Positions 241 through 8,143 of a stretch of 29,404 nt of DNA are shown piece by piece. A program made the position numbers and the translations under genes. Where the stretch lies: the IMG/VR virus record IMGVR_UViG_3300027206_000008, positions 1 to 29,404 of that record. The stretch is one strand, 5' to 3'. The stretch's first letter is position 1. Each line of letters starts with the position of its first letter. The DNA comes from a virus. Its lineage: Duplodnaviria; Caudoviricetes. The notes beneath the pieces are model-generated. The model was not told the DNA's origin. It made no database searches and worked only from the letters and a program-made list of their open reading frames with translations.

Positions 241-1287
241 ATGAAATCAAAATCTCCATTTCCAATGAAATCTCCACTACGCATACAAACTTATGGCGGA
301 GATACTTACGAAAGTCCTGACACGGTTATAACAAAAACTGTTGGGGAGCAAGTGGGTAAAGCAATAACTGGAATAGCTAAAGATGCTACTAAATATATGG
401 ATTTAAAAGGCAAATTAGCTAAAGATAAATCTGATCACGGTAAAGCTATGGAACTTGCAAATCTAAAATATGGCAAAAAAACAAATGGTGAAGCACGCTT
501 AGGTTTAACAACTCCTAGTAAAGTAGGTAGTAGTTTTGGCGAAGTTCCCGGAGTGCCAGATTTAGTTTCAAATTCACAAACATCTAGCACTATAAAAGGA
601 AAAACATTTCTAGATCAGAATGCATGGGATAGCAATAGAAACGATGTTCGAAACGATAAAAGATTTCAAGGTGAAGGTGGAAAAGATCGGTTTTTTATTG
701 CTGCACAAGATTATAGAGACAGAGAAGGAACAGGTATAAATACAACTTATGACAAAGGTAAAACAAGATTTGAAGACGGAAAAAGAATGTTAGCCATTAA
801 TATGAACGGTTCACCAAATAAACTAATAGGAGATACTATGGATCCATACGGACAAATAAACCCAGGACAACCTAGCGCTAGAGCTATTGATATGGCAGCT
901 ATTGGAAATCCTTATGCTACTCCAGGTGCTGATTTTGACCCTCAAAGTAAAATGAAAGCTGAATCTATATTCGGTTCAGCGGGACAACGTCAAGGCTTAA
1001 TGAATTTAGGTACGCCTTTACATACAAAAGGCCACGAAGGTGATTTCATAAAAGATCATAAGCATTCTACCGAAAGCAAAAATCCTGCAACACCTAAATA
1101 TATAAATGGTGATCCGTCTAAAACAGCTGACAAATTAATAAGTTCAACAGATGAACCAAGAAGACTAAAGAAAAATGAAATTGGACCTCCAACAGAAAGA
1201 GAACAAAGCGATAGAGATTATTTAGCTAAATTCGACATGGAATATAAAGCTAGTGGAGGAAATCTATACGTGCCTAAAAAAAGATAA
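241..1287 (+). CDS. Hypothetical 348-aa low-complexity protein with repeated SP-hydrophobic motifs (possible internal virion protein)
   Basis: Long, tightly packed ORF rich in G/K/D/P. Motifs KSPF, KSPL, GSPN, GTPL. Confidence 0.75.
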   Translation: MKSKSPFPMKSPLRIQTYGGDTYESPDTVITKTVGEQVGKAITGIAKDATKYMDLKGKLAKDKSDHGKAMELANLKYGKKTNGEARLGLTTPSKVGSSFGEVPGVPDLVSNSQTSSTIKGKTFLDQNAWDSNRNDVRNDKRFQGEGGKDRFFIAAQDYRDREGTGINTTYDKGKTRFEDGKRMLAINMNGSPNKLIGDTMDPYGQINPGQPSARAIDMAAIGNPYATPGADFDPQSKMKAESIFGSAGQRQGLMNLGTPLHTKGHEGDFIKDHKHSTESKNPATPKYINGDPSKTADKLISSTDEPRRLKKNEIGPPTEREQSDRDYLAKFDMEYKASGGNLYVPKKR

Positions 1288-1292
1288 AAATA

Positions 1293-1493
1293 ATGAAATC
1301 ACCATTCTACAAAAAAGGTTTTCCTGAAATAAAAGATAAAAACAAAGGCAAGTTTACTAAGTGGGCTAAAGCTAATGGATTTAAAGATGCTTGCAGTGCA
1401 GCTTCAGCTGTAATGAGTGCTGGTGAAGAAAAATACAGTCCAAGCGTTAGAAAAATGGCAAATTACGCAAACAACTTTGGTTGTAAAAAATAA
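1293..1493 (+). CDS. Small basic hypothetical protein (KNKGKFTKWAK...SPSVRKMANYANNF)
   Basis: 66-aa ORF with an A-rich leader. The motif resembles a recurring small basic phage domain (recognised from memory). Confidence 0.8.
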   Translation: MKSPFYKKGFPEIKDKNKGKFTKWAKANGFKDACSAASAVMSAGEEKYSPSVRKMANYANNFGCKK

Positions 1494-1512
1494 CAATATA
1501 AAACAATAAATT

Positions 1513-1734
1513 ATGCACAATGACAAAGCACATCAAAAAGCGACTAAAGGCTCTAGCGGAGTAGTAGGTGAATCGGCTATTTGGGATGGACCCTTAGATC
1601 AAACAGGACGCTTACACGGATCAGGATCAAGTTCTGGTATTACAGGTATGGAAGTTTTAAAAGCTCCTACAATGTATAAGGCTGGGCCTATAACTCAGCT
1701 AGCTAAAGGTAAGTCTGGATTAGGAATAAACTAA
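1513..1734 (+). CDS. Small Gly-rich hypothetical protein
   Basis: 73-aa ORF with an A-rich leader, tightly packed. Confidence 0.75.
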   Translation: MHNDKAHQKATKGSSGVVGESAIWDGPLDQTGRLHGSGSSSGITGMEVLKAPTMYKAGPITQLAKGKSGLGIN

Positions 1735-1736
1735 AA

Positions 1737-1889
1737 ATGGAACATTTGGATTTTAAAGTATTGGCAACTAACGCGATAGCACTAGCATTAAGCATGACGC
1801 ATATTGAAGTAGGCCTAAAGGTTATTTTATTACTTGTAAGTATCGGGTACACAATAACTAAATGGGTAAAACTTAAAGAAAAGAAGTAA
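1737..1889 (+). CDS. Small membrane protein, putative holin (50 aa; not in the ORF track)
   Basis: Hand translation: MEHLDFKVLATNAIALALSMTHIEVGLKVILLLVSIGYTITKWVKLKEKK. Two hydrophobic stretches and a basic tail. It fills the gap between the flanking genes. Confidence 0.75.
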   Translation: MEHLDFKVLATNAIALALSMTHIEVGLKVILLLVSIGYTITKWVKLKEKK

Positions 1890-1899
1890 TAATTATAAC

Positions 1900-2178
1900 A
1901 TGGGATATGCACAACCAGGATCACCTTTTTTAAAAGTACCAAAAACAACTAAAGGAAAAGGTAGAAACTTCAGAACAACAGAAGAAGGTGCTGGTATGAC
2001 TAGTGCTGGTGTTAATAAATATAAAAAAGAAAATCCAGGTAGTAAGTTAAAAACTGCTGTAACTGGAGATGTTAAACCAGGAAGCAAAGACGCTAAGCGT
2101 CGTAAATCTTTCTGTGCTAGATCAAAAGGCTGGACTGGCGAAAGAGGTAAAGCCGCTAGAAGAAGATGGAAATGCTAA
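1900..2178 (+). CDS. Small basic phage protein, DUF6321-like (RRKSFCAR...RRWKC)
   Basis: 92-aa ORF. The C-terminal motif KRRKSFCARSKGW...ARRRWKC is recalled as a widespread phage DUF family. Confidence 0.75.
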   Translation: MGYAQPGSPFLKVPKTTKGKGRNFRTTEEGAGMTSAGVNKYKKENPGSKLKTAVTGDVKPGSKDAKRRKSFCARSKGWTGERGKAARRRWKC

Positions 2179-2203
2179 ACAATTAAACATAAAAACTAAT
2201 ACA

Positions 2204-2452
2204 ATGGAAAAAGGACATTACGGTCAATACACCGGAAACGCAAGACACTCAAGAAAAGAAGACGAAAAGTATGATGCTAATAAAGCTTATGATAAAAACT
2301 TAAGCGCAAGTGCTCGTTTACATTATTTAGAAAATAATATAGCTGATCATAAATCACCAGCTTCAATGTTAGGAGACTTAGACAAAGATGGTAGTATGAG
2401 TGAATACGAAACAAAACGTCAAAACGCAATTAATAAAAACACTAAAAAATAA
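2204..2452 (+). CDS. Hypothetical 82-aa protein with an EF-hand-like loop
   Basis: Start reassigned to ATG 2204 (A-rich leader, no overlap). Contains DLDKDGSMSEYE. Confidence 0.75.
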   Translation: MEKGHYGQYTGNARHSRKEDEKYDANKAYDKNLSASARLHYLENNIADHKSPASMLGDLDKDGSMSEYETKRQNAINKNTKK

Positions 2453-2456
2453 AACT

Positions 2457-2642
2457 ATGTACAACAAACCTAAAGGAGCCGCGGCATTAAACTTAAACAA
2501 AGGTTATGGCAATGAGTCATCATCTCAAGAAAAAATAAACTTAATAAGTGATAATCCTATAGCTAAACACGCTAGCGGAGGTTCGTTTATGTCTAAACAT
2601 TCTCATTCATCTCCGTTAGGAATGTATAAGAAAGAAATGTAA
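2457..2642 (+). CDS. Small hypothetical protein (61 aa)
   Basis: Start reassigned to ATG 2457, just after the upstream stop. MYNKPKG...HSSPLGMYKKEM. Confidence 0.7.
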   Translation: MYNKPKGAAALNLNKGYGNESSSQEKINLISDNPIAKHASGGSFMSKHSHSSPLGMYKKEM

Positions 2643-2672
2643 TAAAACAGATTAGGACTGTATAAACCTAGC

Positions 2673-2714
2673 CAACAAACAACAAACAACAAACAACAAA
2701 CAACAAACAACAAA
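2673..2714 (+). repeat. Perfect tandem repeat (CAACAAA)x6
   Basis: Six exact 7-mer copies, ending 4 nt before ATG 2719. Confidence 0.97.
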
Positions 2715-2718
2715 CACA

Positions 2719-3117
2719 ATGGCAAAATTCATCAAATTTAACATTACGCTTACAGGCGCTGTTCAACCAGCTGCCCCGATCTCACCGATCTTGATAAACG
2801 TAGAAGACATCACAACAGTAACAGCGGCAGGAGCTGCAGGAGCTCAATCAAGTGTAATTATCGGTCTTACAGGCAGAAACACTATTGCAGGTTACACTAC
2901 ATTAACTCTTCAGCCTTCAACATCAGCTTCAGCTTTAGTTGCTCCAGCTTTTGTAGACGGACAAAGAAATCCTTTAGAAGACGCAGTACATTCAGCTATT
3001 ACAGCTAATCCAGGTGGAGTAGTTACAACTTGCTCTCTAGGTAATGACCAAGCAGCAGCTACAGTAGCACTTCCAAATGGAGCTCCAATGTTCTGGGGAA
3101 CAGCTACTTTTGCATAA
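2719..3117 (+). CDS. Hypothetical Ala/Thr/Gly-rich protein, likely structural
   Basis: 132-aa ORF with a composition resembling virion proteins. Confidence 0.8.
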   Translation: MAKFIKFNITLTGAVQPAAPISPILINVEDITTVTAAGAAGAQSSVIIGLTGRNTIAGYTTLTLQPSTSASALVAPAFVDGQRNPLEDAVHSAITANPGGVVTTCSLGNDQAAATVALPNGAPMFWGTATFA

Positions 3118-3118
3118 T

Positions 3119-3277
3119 ATGAGTAAATCACAAGGTTTCGGCGATAGCGTAGAGAAATTTACAGAAGCAACCGGGATCAAAACTTTCGTTGACAAAGTAT
3201 CACAGGGATTAAACATTCCCTGTGGCTGTCAACAAAGAAAAGAAACTTTAAATAAAGTTTTTCCTTACAAACAATAA
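3119..3277 (+). CDS. Small conserved phage protein with CGC motif (52 aa)
   Basis: Start reassigned to ATG 3119. The GFGDSVEKFTEATGIK...CGCQQRKETLNKVFPY pattern is recalled from Bacteroidota phages. Confidence 0.8.
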   Translation: MSKSQGFGDSVEKFTEATGIKTFVDKVSQGLNIPCGCQQRKETLNKVFPYKQ

Positions 3278-3280
3278 TTT

Positions 3281-3601
3281 ATGAGCTTTATAATGAAAGG
3301 TGCGCCTTATAGTACTGACAATACTCCTATTTATCACGTAGATATGGAAGATGGTGTATTAGGCAAGGCTAATAATAATGGTACTATAATTATTAATAAA
3401 GACGTTAAAGATCCTGAACAAGTAGATGACGTTATAGATCATGAGAAAATACATTTAGACCAAATGAAAAGAGGCGACTTGGCTTATGATGACAAAAATG
3501 TTTATTGGAAAGGTAAAAAATACTCAAGAGCTTCAATGGAAGAAGGTAATAAAAACCTTCCTTGGGAAAAAGAAGCATACGCTAAAACTCGAAAAGCATA
3601 A
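3281..3601 (+). CDS. Putative minimal zinc metallopeptidase (HExxH)
   Basis: VIDHEKIHLDQ (HExxH) preceded by beta-strand-like GTIIIN, with a downstream PWEKEAY that supplies a candidate third ligand Glu. Confidence 0.7.
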   Translation: MSFIMKGAPYSTDNTPIYHVDMEDGVLGKANNNGTIIINKDVKDPEQVDDVIDHEKIHLDQMKRGDLAYDDKNVYWKGKKYSRASMEEGNKNLPWEKEAYAKTRKA

Positions 3602-3981
3602 TGTGGAAAGTACTACTAGGTCTTTTAAAAGGAGGTGAAGGTAGAAAATCTGTTGCCGGTGGTTTGGCTTGGGAAATAAGAGAAGCGATTAAAGGCAAAG
3701 AACTTGACCCTGAAAAACTAATAGAACTACAAACTAAAATAAATTTAGCTGAAGCTTCACACAGAACTTTATTCGTTGCTGGTTGGAGACCATTTATAGG
3801 TTGGATATGCGGATTTGCATTAGCTTATAATTTTGTTATTAGAGATTTGTTTATATGGATAACTAAAACAACAGATGCACCACCACCATTACAAATGGAA
3901 CATTTAATGACCGTACTTCTAGGTATGCTAGGATTAGGAGGTCTTCGAACTTACGAAAAAATAAAAGACAAAGTAAAATAA
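3601..3981 (+). CDS. Holin, 3TM GTA-type (DUF3154-like)
   Basis: Signature FVAGWRPFIGWICG, C-terminal LLGMLGLGGLRTYEK, and hydrophobic helices. Confidence 0.85.
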   Translation: MWKVLLGLLKGGEGRKSVAGGLAWEIREAIKGKELDPEKLIELQTKINLAEASHRTLFVAGWRPFIGWICGFALAYNFVIRDLFIWITKTTDAPPPLQMEHLMTVLLGMLGLGGLRTYEKIKDKVK

Positions 3982-5105: not shown

Positions 5106-5710
5106 TGAATAGTGTTCACCAGTTTATAGTAAAACCTATAGGTGAAAGATATAATAATGAAATAACTATTGGTGATAAAAAGCTAATAGTTAATTCTAGT
5201 ATCTCTGACCATAAGTTTGTAAATAGAGAAGCAGAAATAATAGCCACGCCATTAGCTTATAAAACTAAGTTAAAAAAAGGCGATAGAGTTATAGTTCATC
5301 ACAATCTATTTAGAAGATACTATGATTTAAAAGGTAAGTCAGTTAATAGCACAAAGTTTTTTAAAGATGATATGTGTTTTGCCTCTATAGATCAAGTGTA
5401 TATGAAAAAGAGTAATAACTCTTGGGAAACTCTAGACAACTACTGCTTTGTTAAGCCTGTGGTTAATAAGGATGATTCTAACTTAAGTAAGCTTAAAAAG
5501 TGCGTTGGTATAGTAAAATATAATAATAGCACCTTAGAAGCTCTTAAAATCAACAATGGAGATTTAGTCGGATTTAAAAAGAACAGAGAATTTGAGTTCT
5601 TAATTGACGGTGAGGTACTTTATTGTATGCAATCAAATGATATTTTAATTAAGTATGAAAATAAAGGAAACGAAACTGAATATAATCCAAGCTGGGCAAA
5701 TAGCAGTTGA
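5105..5710 (+). CDS. GroES/Cpn10-like co-chaperonin with two tandem domains
   Basis: Two Cpn10-like patterns: FIVKP...AEIIA...LKKGDRVIV and CFVKP...GIVKY...INNGDLVGF...IDGEVLYCMQSNDIL. Confidence 0.7.
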   Translation: MNSVHQFIVKPIGERYNNEITIGDKKLIVNSSISDHKFVNREAEIIATPLAYKTKLKKGDRVIVHHNLFRRYYDLKGKSVNSTKFFKDDMCFASIDQVYMKKSNNSWETLDNYCFVKPVVNKDDSNLSKLKKCVGIVKYNNSTLEALKINNGDLVGFKKNREFEFLIDGEVLYCMQSNDILIKYENKGNETEYNPSWANSS

Positions 5711-5927
5711 AGAACTTATAAAAGTAGCGAAAGAAAAGATTGTAGACTCAGAAGATGATATCTCGGCTGATAGACTTAAAAACGCTGCTGCTACTAAAAA
5801 ATTAGCAATATTTGATGCTTTTGAAATACTAGCTAGAATAGAAGCTGAAGAAAATATAATAAATGAAAAGCCAGTAAAAACTCAAGTTGAGTCTTTTAAG
5901 GGTTTTGCCGAAGGAAGATCTAAGTAA
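5655..5927 (+). CDS. Probable terminase small subunit
   Basis: 90-aa helical protein directly upstream of terL and coupled to it (TAATG). The function is inferred from position. Confidence 0.55.
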   Translation: MKIKETKLNIIQAGQIAVEELIKVAKEKIVDSEDDISADRLKNAAATKKLAIFDAFEILARIEAEENIINEKPVKTQVESFKGFAEGRSK

Positions 5928-8143
5928 TGTACGAACAAAGCTTATATCACGTGGTAGAAGACCACATAAAGCCTAAAGTTGTTAATAGACTTAATAGGCT
6001 TAAAAAATGGAAATACGGATACGATAAAGATCACGACGTTGTTGTGGTTAGCAAAACAGGGCAAATAGGTGAAATATATAGTATACAAAACCTATTGATA
6101 GCTCTGCCTTTAGCTGAAGACGTTTATAAGTGCTCTAAAAAAATAACAGAACAACGATGGAATGTTTTAGATTATCCAGCTGAATTAAAAAGAATTAATA
6201 CAGTATATGATTGGAATCAAAAACCTATAGCGTTTAAAGAAAAGCATTATGAATATATTAACAAAGAGTTCGTTAGGCGTGAAGAAGGTTATTGGTACTA
6301 TAACAAAGGTGTTCCTACTTATATTACTGGTTCTCACTACATGTACTTGCAGTGGACTAAAATTGATGTGGGGCACGCAGACTTTAGAGAATCAAACAGA
6401 TTATTTTATATATTCTGGGAGGCTTGCAAGGCAGATTCAAGATGCTACGGACTGTGCTACCTTAAGAATAGACGCTCAGGCTTCTCTTTCATGGCTTCAT
6501 CGGACACCGTTAACCAGGCAACAATATCAAGAGATGCAAGGTTTGGTATCCTTAGTAAATCAGGAGCTGATGCGAAAAAGATGTTTACCGATAAGGTGGT
6601 ACCCATCTCAATCAACTATCCTTTCTTTTTCAAACCAATACAGGACGGAATGGAACGTCCCAAAACGGAGCTATCGTATAAAGTCCCGTCGAAGAGACTC
6701 ACTCGTAACTCCATTAAGGAGACAACCGAGGATCTCCAGGCAGGTCTCGACACCACGATCGACTGGAAGAACACAGGGGACAACTCGTACGATGGAGAGA
6801 AACTCAAGCTCCTCGTCCACGATGAATCGGGTAAATGGGAAAGGCCGGATAACATCCTCAACAACTGGCGCGTCACGAAGACAACGTTAAGATTAGGTAG
6901 AAGAATCGTCGGTAAATGTATGATGGGTTCTACTTCAAACGCATTAGATAAAGGTGGAGAAAACTTTAAAAAGCTATACGAAGCTTCGGATGTCAACAAA
7001 AGAAACCGCAACGGTCAGACTAGCTCAGGACTATATAGTATGTTCGTACCTATGGAATGGAACTACGAAGGATACATTGATTCTTATGGACTACCTGTAT
7101 TCGACACTCCAAAAAAACCAATCAAAGGTGTTGATGGAGAAGACATCGACATCGGTGTAATATCGCATTGGGAAAACGAAGTTGATGGTTTAAAGGACGA
7201 TCAAGATGGTTTAAATGAATACTATCGTCAGTTTCCAAGAACAGAGAAACACGCTTTCAGAGATGAAGCTAAGGAATCTTTGTTTAATTTGACTAAAATA
7301 TACGAGCAAATAGACTATAATGAAGATCTTCGTAATACTAATGTAGTTACACAGGGTAATTTTCAATGGGAAGGTGGGATTAAAGATACTAGGGTAATGT
7401 TTGTACCTAATAAAAACGGCAGATTTCTAGTTAGTTGGGTTCCTCCAGTTGGACTACAGAATAGATACAATATAAAAAACAATATAAAATACCCTGGAAA
7501 TGAACACTGTGGAGCGTTTGGATGTGATAGTTATGATATATCTGGTACTGTTGACGGTAAAGGCTCTAAAGGATCTTTGCACGGATTAACTAAGTTTTCA
7601 ATGGAAGACGTACCGCCTAATTTGTTCTTTTTAGAATACATATCAAGACCACAGACTGCTGATATATTCTTTGAAGATGTTCTTATGGCTTTAATATTTT
7701 ATGGTATGCCTATATTGGCAGAGAATAACAAACCTAGACTCTTATATTACATGAAGAGAAGAGGTTACAGAGGTTATTCTATGAATAGACCTGACAAAGT
7801 TATGCATAAGTTATCAGTAACAGAAAGAGAAATAGGTGGAATACCTAATTCAAGTGAAGATATAAAGCAAGCTCACGCAGCTGCTATTGAAGATTATATA
7901 GAAAACCACGTTGGCCTTGGACAAGACGGATATGGAAATACATATTTTCAAAGAACATTAGAAGACTGGGCTAAGTTTAATATAAATAATAGAACAAAAC
8001 ACGATGCTTCTATTAGTTCGGGTTTAGCTATAATGGCATGTAATAAACATAGATATACACCTGTTGCAAAAAGAGTAATATCTCAAGTATCATTAGGTTT
8101 TAGAAAATATAACAATACAGGTGAAAATTCAAAAATAATATAA
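5927..8143 (+). CDS. terL: Terminase large subunit
   Basis: Walker A-like KNRRSGFS, Walker B LLVHDE, motif III GSTSN, RNase H-like nuclease FGCDSYD...HDASIS. Lies upstream of the portal. Confidence 0.93.
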   Translation: MYEQSLYHVVEDHIKPKVVNRLNRLKKWKYGYDKDHDVVVVSKTGQIGEIYSIQNLLIALPLAEDVYKCSKKITEQRWNVLDYPAELKRINTVYDWNQKPIAFKEKHYEYINKEFVRREEGYWYYNKGVPTYITGSHYMYLQWTKIDVGHADFRESNRLFYIFWEACKADSRCYGLCYLKNRRSGFSFMASSDTVNQATISRDARFGILSKSGADAKKMFTDKVVPISINYPFFFKPIQDGMERPKTELSYKVPSKRLTRNSIKETTEDLQAGLDTTIDWKNTGDNSYDGEKLKLLVHDESGKWERPDNILNNWRVTKTTLRLGRRIVGKCMMGSTSNALDKGGENFKKLYEASDVNKRNRNGQTSSGLYSMFVPMEWNYEGYIDSYGLPVFDTPKKPIKGVDGEDIDIGVISHWENEVDGLKDDQDGLNEYYRQFPRTEKHAFRDEAKESLFNLTKIYEQIDYNEDLRNTNVVTQGNFQWEGGIKDTRVMFVPNKNGRFLVSWVPPVGLQNRYNIKNNIKYPGNEHCGAFGCDSYDISGTVDGKGSKGSLHGLTKFSMEDVPPNLFFLEYISRPQTADIFFEDVLMALIFYGMPILAENNKPRLLYYMKRRGYRGYSMNRPDKVMHKLSVTEREIGGIPNSSEDIKQAHAAAIEDYIENHVGLGQDGYGNTYFQRTLEDWAKFNINNRTKHDASISSGLAIMACNKHRYTPVAKRVISQVSLGFRKYNNTGENSKII
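6249..6890 (+). CDS. Candidate overprinted lipoprotein nested in the +1 frame of terL (alternative start GTG 6279)
   Basis: 213 stop-free codons, signal-like KKVIGTITKVFLLILLVLTTC, Arg/Ser/Thr-rich tail, and a local GC rise. Confidence 0.55.
   Translation: MNILTKSSLGVKKVIGTITKVFLLILLVLTTCTCSGLKLMWGTQTLENQTDYFIYSGRLARQIQDATDCATLRIDAQASLSWLHRTPLTRQQYQEMQGLVSLVNQELMRKRCLPIRWYPSQSTILSFSNQYRTEWNVPKRSYRIKSRRRDSLVTPLRRQPRISRQVSTPRSTGRTQGTTRTMERNSSSSSTMNRVNGKGRITSSTTGASRRQR

Follow-up and report, generated by a model that had tools for sequence, protein, structure and literature searches.

A predicted lipoprotein gene overprinted on the terminase gene of phages with a probable flavobacterial host

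Phage lipoprotein genes nested in the +1 frame of a late gene are exemplified by lambda Rz1, within Rz, and T7 gene 18.7, within 18.5 (PMC6139136). Here we describe a hidden gene of similar layout in the virus record IMGVR_UViG_3300027206_000008 (Caudoviricetes), analysed over its complete 29.4-kb extent (29,404 nucleotides, hereafter the window), where it occupies the +1 frame of terL, the gene for the terminase large subunit. As with Rz1 and 18.7, its product would be a lipoprotein with an envelope role at lysis. Unlike them, it is embedded in the gene of a packaging ATPase rather than in that of an inner-membrane spanin (i-spanin) partner, it is 213 aa long (T7 18.7 has 83 aa), its mature sequence is not conserved, no partner is linked to it, and it has been lost many times. 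T7 genes 19.2 and 19.3, described as hypothetical genes with a potential lysis function in PMC8365609, also lie in the +1 frame of terL (T7 gene 19), so that nesting in terL, which a sequence-only reading of the window had called unusual, is rare but not unprecedented. These two genes differ from the hidden gene in encoding 85 and 57 aa, in having no signal peptide with a lipobox by eye, and in belonging to an unrelated phage family; the likeness is one of position, no homology is claimed, and the window phage group may also hold two nested genes.

Two further classes of protein invite comparison. Unimolecular spanins (u-spanins, of the T1 gp11 type) are single lipoproteins able to act without a partner, as the hidden product would be, but the latter lacks a C-terminal transmembrane domain (TMD) in all 72 open-frame relatives compared below, and has no fold. 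De novo overprinted viral proteins, mainly of small eukaryotic viruses in the review PMC8227390, share with it a restricted distribution, deviant codon usage, a disorder-promoting composition and an accessory character; unlike those cases, it extends over some 210 codons of a phage ATPase that hardly varies, has an export signal in two versions, and shows a trade-off with an ordinary gene. Our literature search on overlapping and overprinted genes (terminase, spanin, lipoprotein) met no terL-nested lipoprotein in titles and the starts of abstracts, with most subscription papers and supplements outside its scope.

Within the window, terL (5927..8143, + strand, 738 aa; PHROG 6681, E 1.8e-163) carries the hidden gene at 6249..6890 (+ strand), which begins with ATG, runs across TerL codons 108-321 in the ATPase domain, and spans what we take to be a Walker A-like motif (residue 180) and a Walker B-like motif (residue 296). 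With the TerL protein held fixed and the codon usage of ten other window genes, 11.05 stops are expected in this frame and none is present (P = 1.95e-8), which bears out the earlier observation of a frame open for 213 codons; the flanking parts of terL hold 10 stops against 11.1 expected and 29 against 31.9. The longest +1 open run reached 147 codons in 3000 synonymous reshuffles, and 20-80 codons in ten other window genes. GC at third codon positions (GC3) is 0.53 in the overlap versus 0.24 elsewhere, overall GC rises to 0.52-0.54 at 6660-6839, and the hand-counted values of 35/60, 30/60 and 16/60 from which the sequence-only reading started proved exact on recount.

We assembled terL relatives from three IMG/VR scans, each over part of the collection and each contributing its best 80 loci, plus five annotated records, for a total of 234 sequences, 218 of which cover the overlap region. 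Among these, 136 (including the window) are close relatives, at ≥67% identity, and 82 (including four annotated records) are distant. The frame is open in 84 of the 136 close relatives (45 long, 37 mid-length and 2 short forms, against 52 broken) and in 0 of the 82 distant ones; among the first 73 relatives, 47 were open across codons 112-268 versus a summed expectation of 0.004. In an independent set of 67 loci from GTDB bins, 11 of which do not cover the region, 31 of 38 close loci were open versus 1 of 18 distant ones. The predicted avoidance of NTA codons before A or G is equally plain: within the overlap, the long class uses NTA in 0 of 250 such positions and in 191 of 309 before C or T, compared with 761 of 1228 before A or G outside the overlap and 85 of 191 in broken relatives. 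This avoidance is confined to one frame and alters third positions alone, GC at first and second positions (GC1 and GC2) being the same. A frame open beyond chance and a distribution narrower than that of the host gene, two marks of a de novo overprinted gene, are both found, and related terL genes do not simply show scattered +1 stops here, since stops are missing only where the gene is retained.

Raised GC3 in the overlap is what one would also see if no protein were made and the pattern reflected a GC-rich patch gained by recombination, or a constraint on DNA or RNA, a reading that we regard as very improbable. Avoidance that is specific to stops, in a single frame, with GC1 and GC2 unchanged, speaks against it, as do start codons that compensate for one another among relatives (see below). 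Lineages with an open frame (ORF+, for open reading frame) and with a broken one (ORF-) are interleaved on a FastTree tree, with 13 changes of state, or 12-15 losses under one gain; their TerL proteins are equally alike in the overlap region (0.839 versus 0.834), and a single ORF+ clade for that region is rejected (53 rows, approximately unbiased (AU) test, p 0.015). The interleaving and the rejected single clade exclude a GC-rich import, which the sequence-only reading had named as the alternative to a real gene, and a single origin followed by repeated loss is the simplest reading of the distribution seen in these sequences. RNA structure was likewise rejected as the cause (folding z scores in ORF+ relatives lie between -0.84 and 0.37, which is no signal, and Rfam has no match), and neither an antisense ORF at 6616-7011 nor the +2 frame of the overlap is open in relatives. 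We therefore hold it nearly certain that selection maintains the +1 frame and that the hidden gene is real. Contigs from RNA libraries span the overlap, and carry no strand, start or frame information. The hidden protein has no match in Pfam, PHROG, NCBIfam or the Atlas and a single chance-level match in PDB (E 0.48); a profile search with it returned 214 matches, and the 120 listed were all without a protein name.

For comparisons at the protein level, sequences were dereplicated at 90% nucleotide identity to 120, comprising 72 long or mid-length ORF+ and 46 ORF- relatives after exclusion of two short forms. The start codon is most likely the ATG at 6249..6251 (+ strand), which has A at -3 and an A-rich upstream region. 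Where codon 111 is open, an ATG stands at codon 108 (window 6249) in 44 of 49 ORF+ relatives; where codon 111 is a stop, none of 23 has ATG at codon 108 and 20 of the 23 have a new ATG at codon 112 or 113, a pattern that shows selection on the start codon as well. An A at -3 is a positive determinant in Flavobacterium (PMC6847099). GTG 6279, previously proposed as the start, is found in a minority of relatives only and has G at -3, and was given up in favour of ATG 6249. A programmed frameshift fusing TerL to the ORF was also rejected: the three database chimeras of this kind switch at three different points and all 72 ORF+ relatives have a start codon of their own (70 of them ATG), so the chimeras look like sequence errors.

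Downstream of this start, the predicted product has the parts of a lipoprotein signal: a basic n-region, a hydrophobic core (VFLLILLVLTT, 6309..6341, + strand) and a near-invariant Cys flanked by small residues. Mean hydropathy of the core is 2.77 in long and 2.71 in mid-length ORF+ relatives versus 0.61 in ORF- relatives, Leu occupies codon 134 in 71 of 72 versus 14 of 46, and TerL codons 130-142 read near-uniformly as L-L-x-L-L-V-L-x-T-C-T-C-S in the +1 frame of ORF+ relatives. The Cys codons at 6342 and 6348 lie exactly where first noted, within the predicted lipobox T-C-T-C-S (6339..6353, + strand). The first is imposed by a TerL Met codon; the second (6348-6350), the predicted lipidated residue, results from synonymous TerL codon choice and is present in 70 of 72 ORF+ versus 15 of 46 ORF- relatives. 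It is preceded by Thr or Ser in 72 of 72 versus 22 of 46, and directly followed by Ser, again mostly through synonymous choice, in 65 of 72 versus 9 of 46.

This selection on synonymous sites strongly supports the claim of a real gene with a type II (lipoprotein) signal, and lipidation at Cys 6348 is predicted with good, if incomplete, confidence. Against it stands the Thr at -1, which lies outside the lipobox consensus [LVI][ASTVI][GAS]C given in PMC6139136, a source that also reports deviant lipoboxes in spanins; T-C-T-C departs from this consensus at -3, -2 and -1. At -1 the TerL code leaves a choice between Thr and Ile, of which Thr is used. The non-consensus Thr, together with a long n-region of about 20 aa and sites resembling those of signal peptidase I (SPI) in three loci of a sister clade described below, would suit a different product, either an uncleaved inner-membrane signal-anchor or a periplasmic polypeptide released by SPI, which would tune lysis timing or tether the packaging site and in which the Cys would be incidental. 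We find this rather improbable, given that synonymous codon choice accounts for the Cys, that the small residues flanking it are fixed, and that the sister clade gained its own Cys through a change of the TerL protein, with Ser before it in most loci. A Pro occupies codon 144, after Gly, in 40 of 72 ORF+ relatives, and no Gln follows the Cys motif. Cleavage by SPI is subject to a proline rule. Most SPI substrates of Bacteroidetes expose Gln after cleavage (PMC5837995). With Pro frequent and Gln missing, a lipoprotein signal fits the main clade better than SPI cleavage does.

The sister clade was reached via loci from GTDB bins (L615, L586, L646-L663, L672-L685), 34 of which cover the region and 14 of which remain after dereplication. 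The same +1 frame is open in these 14, with 2 stops versus 70.9 expected, but the signal is built differently: the hydrophobic core lies at codons 113-122 (hydropathy 2.11 versus -0.47 in the main clade) and the Cys at codon 125, 16 codons upstream of the main-clade Cys and at a codon that is a stop in 66 of 79 distant relatives. This Cys arose via a TerL amino-acid change, with Ser before it in 11 of 14 loci, and those 11 end in xGSC, a canonical lipobox end. The other three read xGLC followed by AxA-QQ and have the look of SPI sites, which counts against a lipid anchor in every member, so the anchor is not universal. Given two signal versions and the SPI-type loci, export is the trait shared by all and lipidation the usual one; on these alignments, the export signal arose or shifted twice. 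The start codons of this clade are less clear.

The predicted mature lipoprotein (6348..6887, + strand) has 180 aa, with 32 Lys and Arg against 10 Asp and Glu, 43 Ser and Thr, and no second TMD; in relatives, the part after the Cys spans 117 to 187 residues. Its best 18-residue hydropathy after the Cys is 0.37 in the window, and none of the 72 ORF+ relatives exceeds 1.6. Identity of the mature part in the +1 frame (0.45-0.46) is not above background (0.46), whereas its composition is enriched in Ser, Thr, Arg and Pro in ORF+ relatives, most strongly in the tail that only the long form retains (6744..6887, + strand), where the long class differs from ORF- relatives in Ser and Thr fraction (0.36 versus 0.14) and hydropathy (-1.01 versus +0.34). 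Coding for this Ser-, Thr- and Arg-rich tail in the +1 frame accounts for the GC peak of terL. The helical region proposed earlier is not borne out as a stable fold when AlphaFold2 is given an alignment of 50 rows (mean predicted local distance difference test (pLDDT) score 39, predicted template modelling score (pTM) 0.11), and the two further Cys assigned to it are set by TerL Met codons and still present in broken-frame relatives. Judging from these alignments, the mature part is best seen as selected only for a hydrophilic, basic and Ser/Thr-rich character, composition outweighing sequence, and the predicted product is most plausibly pictured as a flexible basic chain with an anchor.

A pointer to what such a chain might do came from a scan of whole or near-whole relative records for lysis-region genes. 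Many relatives encode a standalone lipoprotein of 120-150 aa at or near the endolysin (alignment A1), with a lipoprotein signal, a short conserved core (VLAxTxxGDT) and a polar, low-complexity, basic-ended, Asn-rich tail; it belongs to no Pfam or NCBIfam family, and its Atlas neighbours are all without a name. It shares with the hidden product the lipoprotein signal, the polar low-complexity tail and the late module, and differs from it in the conserved core, the Asn-rich tail and a canonical Ser, Gly or Ala before the Cys; no sequence relation between the two was seen, and none was tested for. The two tend not to occur together. Among records picked by their endolysin, the standalone family is found in 0 of 16 with a long intact ORF versus 8 of 20 whose frame is broken or lacks the Cys (Fisher p 0.005; one partial record excluded). 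On a TerL tree of 60 records, nine independent pairs gave 7.1 concordant and 0 discordant (p ~0.016), or 6.7 versus 0.5 (p ~0.03) counting the standalone family alone, and G059 and G130, which have an open frame without the second Cys, carry the standalone gene, as expected of decay intermediates.

Several observations weigh against a simple replacement. Among 32 records whose ORF is intact, 9 also have a standalone lipoprotein (of 23 long forms, only 1 does), and 11 of 28 ORF-lost records show no standalone lipoprotein, including a clade with near-complete genomes. The record set mixes endolysin-picked and lipoprotein-picked records, most of them incomplete, and we infer the lysis-cassette role of the standalone lipoprotein from its position only. 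Most of the co-occurring cases are short forms, recoded less strongly (GC3 0.37, n = 7, versus 0.47, n = 18), and in the clade with neither lipoprotein four of six near-complete genomes have a lipobox on an outer-membrane-protein-like gene instead. None of 14 sister-clade records, the majority incomplete, yielded the standalone family in a search that had no positive control. We read the hidden gene as partly redundant with the lysis-cassette lipoprotein, with an exclusion between them that is not strict.

Taking these lines of evidence together, we put at roughly 45% the probability that the hidden gene encodes a de novo lipoprotein serving as a late, lysis-accessory envelope factor that replaces the standalone lipoprotein beside the endolysin. 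Ribosomes would start at ATG 6249 of the late packaging transcript; the established lipoprotein pathway would carry the product through Sec export, Lgt/LspA processing and outer-membrane sorting; and the mature chain, unstructured and lipid-anchored at Cys 6348, would lie in the periplasm as a basic, flexible polymer and, after the action of holin and endolysin, help to weaken or bridge the outer membrane.

A real lipoprotein might instead serve superinfection exclusion or receptor masking, coating the surface or periplasm so that other phages or progeny fail to adsorb. The selected lipoprotein signal fits this, the gene is dispensable and repeatedly lost, like accessory genes, and the standalone counterpart often lies in a cassette with predicted outer-membrane and thioredoxin-like exported proteins, not only by the endolysin. 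Known exclusion lipoproteins such as T5 Llp and Cor bind a specific receptor via a folded domain. The hidden protein has no conserved, folded receptor-binding domain, its mature part being at background conservation and without a fold, and its gene sits in the late packaging module with no promoter signal above chance (13 versus 14.9); exclusion thus appears unlikely, though it deserves some weight. Lipoprotein-like ORFs of 39-49 aa outside the lysis region (G107:56146-56265, G121:9413-9535, G105:12958-13107) are possible exclusion factors in their own right.

The sequence-only reading had also raised a spanin-like lysis factor, noting that no spanin is otherwise visible. The latter holds for the window, which is a 29-kb fragment that lacks an endolysin too. 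The former fits only loosely: a lysis-cassette role is indirectly backed by the trade-off with the standalone lipoprotein, but the absence of a C-terminal TMD, a host gene that is not an i-spanin gene, and an unconserved mature sequence do not suit a spanin. Its most specific version, an outer-membrane spanin (o-spanin) of a far-separated two-component pair whose partner is a 94-aa type II membrane protein near the endolysin, is in our view doubtful. This partner, which has an acidic coiled coil that would complement the basic lipoprotein, is encoded in 54 of 80 records, often right after the standalone lipoprotein gene, and 31 genomes with lipoproteins and no linked i-spanin are reported in PMC6139136. 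Yet the 94-aa gene was not found in the ORF+ relatives G001 (77% complete), G013 (82%) and G089 (89%), it persists in the clade with neither lipoprotein, the hidden protein has no conserved binding segment, and terL adjoins a small-terminase-like gene and portal rather than an i-spanin gene.

Relatives carry a variety of other envelope genes. The ORF- relative G005 (L247:2547-3694) has a holin-like gene, an endolysin and then a 161-aa gene with u-spanin architecture (lipobox FTSC, C-terminal TMD); of 50 other records, three, all of them distant, have a homologue, and five ORF- records without the standalone family have none. The 94-aa protein belongs to a cassette near the endolysin (G002:49861-51784 and 9-10 of 45 records) with a large exported protein and a thioredoxin-like exported protein (PF00085); the large protein, of 350-400 aa, seems to end like an outer-membrane barrel and bears a lipobox in several ORF- genomes. 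Another envelope cassette, present in ORF+ and ORF- phages alike (G089, G093, G110; e.g. L404:302-658), comprises a 118-aa lipoprotein, a 76-91-aa membrane protein and a 238-aa exported protein. Distant relatives, including the cultured elemoA and phi38:1, encode in or near the lysis region proteins that start with a hydrophobic anchor and end in what resembles a beta-strand (L081:15491-16114, L082:10183-10728, L084:1280-1879), which are possibly a further outer-membrane lysis factor.

Farther along terL, a second stretch is depleted of +1 stops (6990..7160, + strand, terL codons 342-410, core 7001-7102), and is a candidate for a second small nested gene of 56 aa, as T7 19.3 follows 19.2, or for a nucleotide element in DNA or RNA. 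Codons 342-398 hold 9 stops versus 147 expected in 118 close relatives, and 84 versus 81 in 79 distant ones, a depletion that rests on about two stop-prone sites. It is independent of the first gene: the stretch is also near stop-free in close relatives that lost the lipoprotein gene. Four-fold site identity is 0.79 at codons 359-392, and synonymous codons are fixed in 54-69 of 72 ORF+ and in 11-13 of 15 scattered ORF- relatives; the start position varies, and no convincing RNA fold was found in the stretch.

The window encodes a holin, GroES-like protein, terminase, portal and virion genes. Immediately upstream of terL, a 90-aa gene (5655..5927, + strand) is by its position probably the small terminase subunit; it has no family match in Pfam or PHROG, and the cluster is conserved in 37 of 45 records. 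The holin, of the 3-TM type, lies in the same gene run (3601..3981, + strand; Pfam PF11351, E 5.7e-10; PHROG 3427 holin). Positions 241-3601 hold a series of short, basic, low-complexity genes (e.g. 1293-1493, 1900-2178) that is typical of the phage group and variable among relatives, and a 106-aa HExxH protein is encoded at 3281-3601. The sequence stops within a large virion gene, which in G001, the closest relative (TerL 93% identical), is followed by a holin-like gene and an endolysin. The window TerL is 62% identical to that of an uncultured freshwater phage and 38-45% identical to those of cultured Flavobacterium and Cellulophaga phages (elemoA, phi13:2, phi38:1), which agrees with "group 2" of PMC5332604, a set of putative Flavobacteriaceae phages that bear GroEL. 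Of the 67 TerL loci from GTDB bins, 34 are in bins named as Bacteroidota (a count of titles, co-binning being weak evidence), and we infer a flavobacterial host. By our estimate, IMG/VR stores ~14,000 stretches with terL relatives, a figure that counts relatives of TerL and not of the hidden gene.

A second gene has thus been written into some 210 codons of an enzyme that is among the most conserved in phages, and its carriers, losers, truncated forms and sister clade make a natural series in which to study how genes are born by overprinting, how signal peptides turn over and how one gene replaces another. Standard annotation overlooks the gene; a GC island within terL can serve to flag it. 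PMC6139136 poses the open question of how Bacteroidota phages that lack a recognisable spanin overcome the outer membrane, and the hidden gene is a concrete candidate for an answer. In its boldest and more tentative form, which we hold possible but not probable, a partnerless, lipid-anchored cationic polymer was invented atop the terminase ATPase code in an abundant clade of marine flavobacterial phages and breaks or loosens the outer membrane at lysis, having displaced the ordinary lysis-cassette lipoprotein many times; its signal would have arisen or shifted on two or more occasions, and another small gene would be nested behind it. If true, "spanin-less" Bacteroidota phages would have a new way to disrupt the outer membrane, and the clade would let one trace how a de novo gene took the place of an old one.

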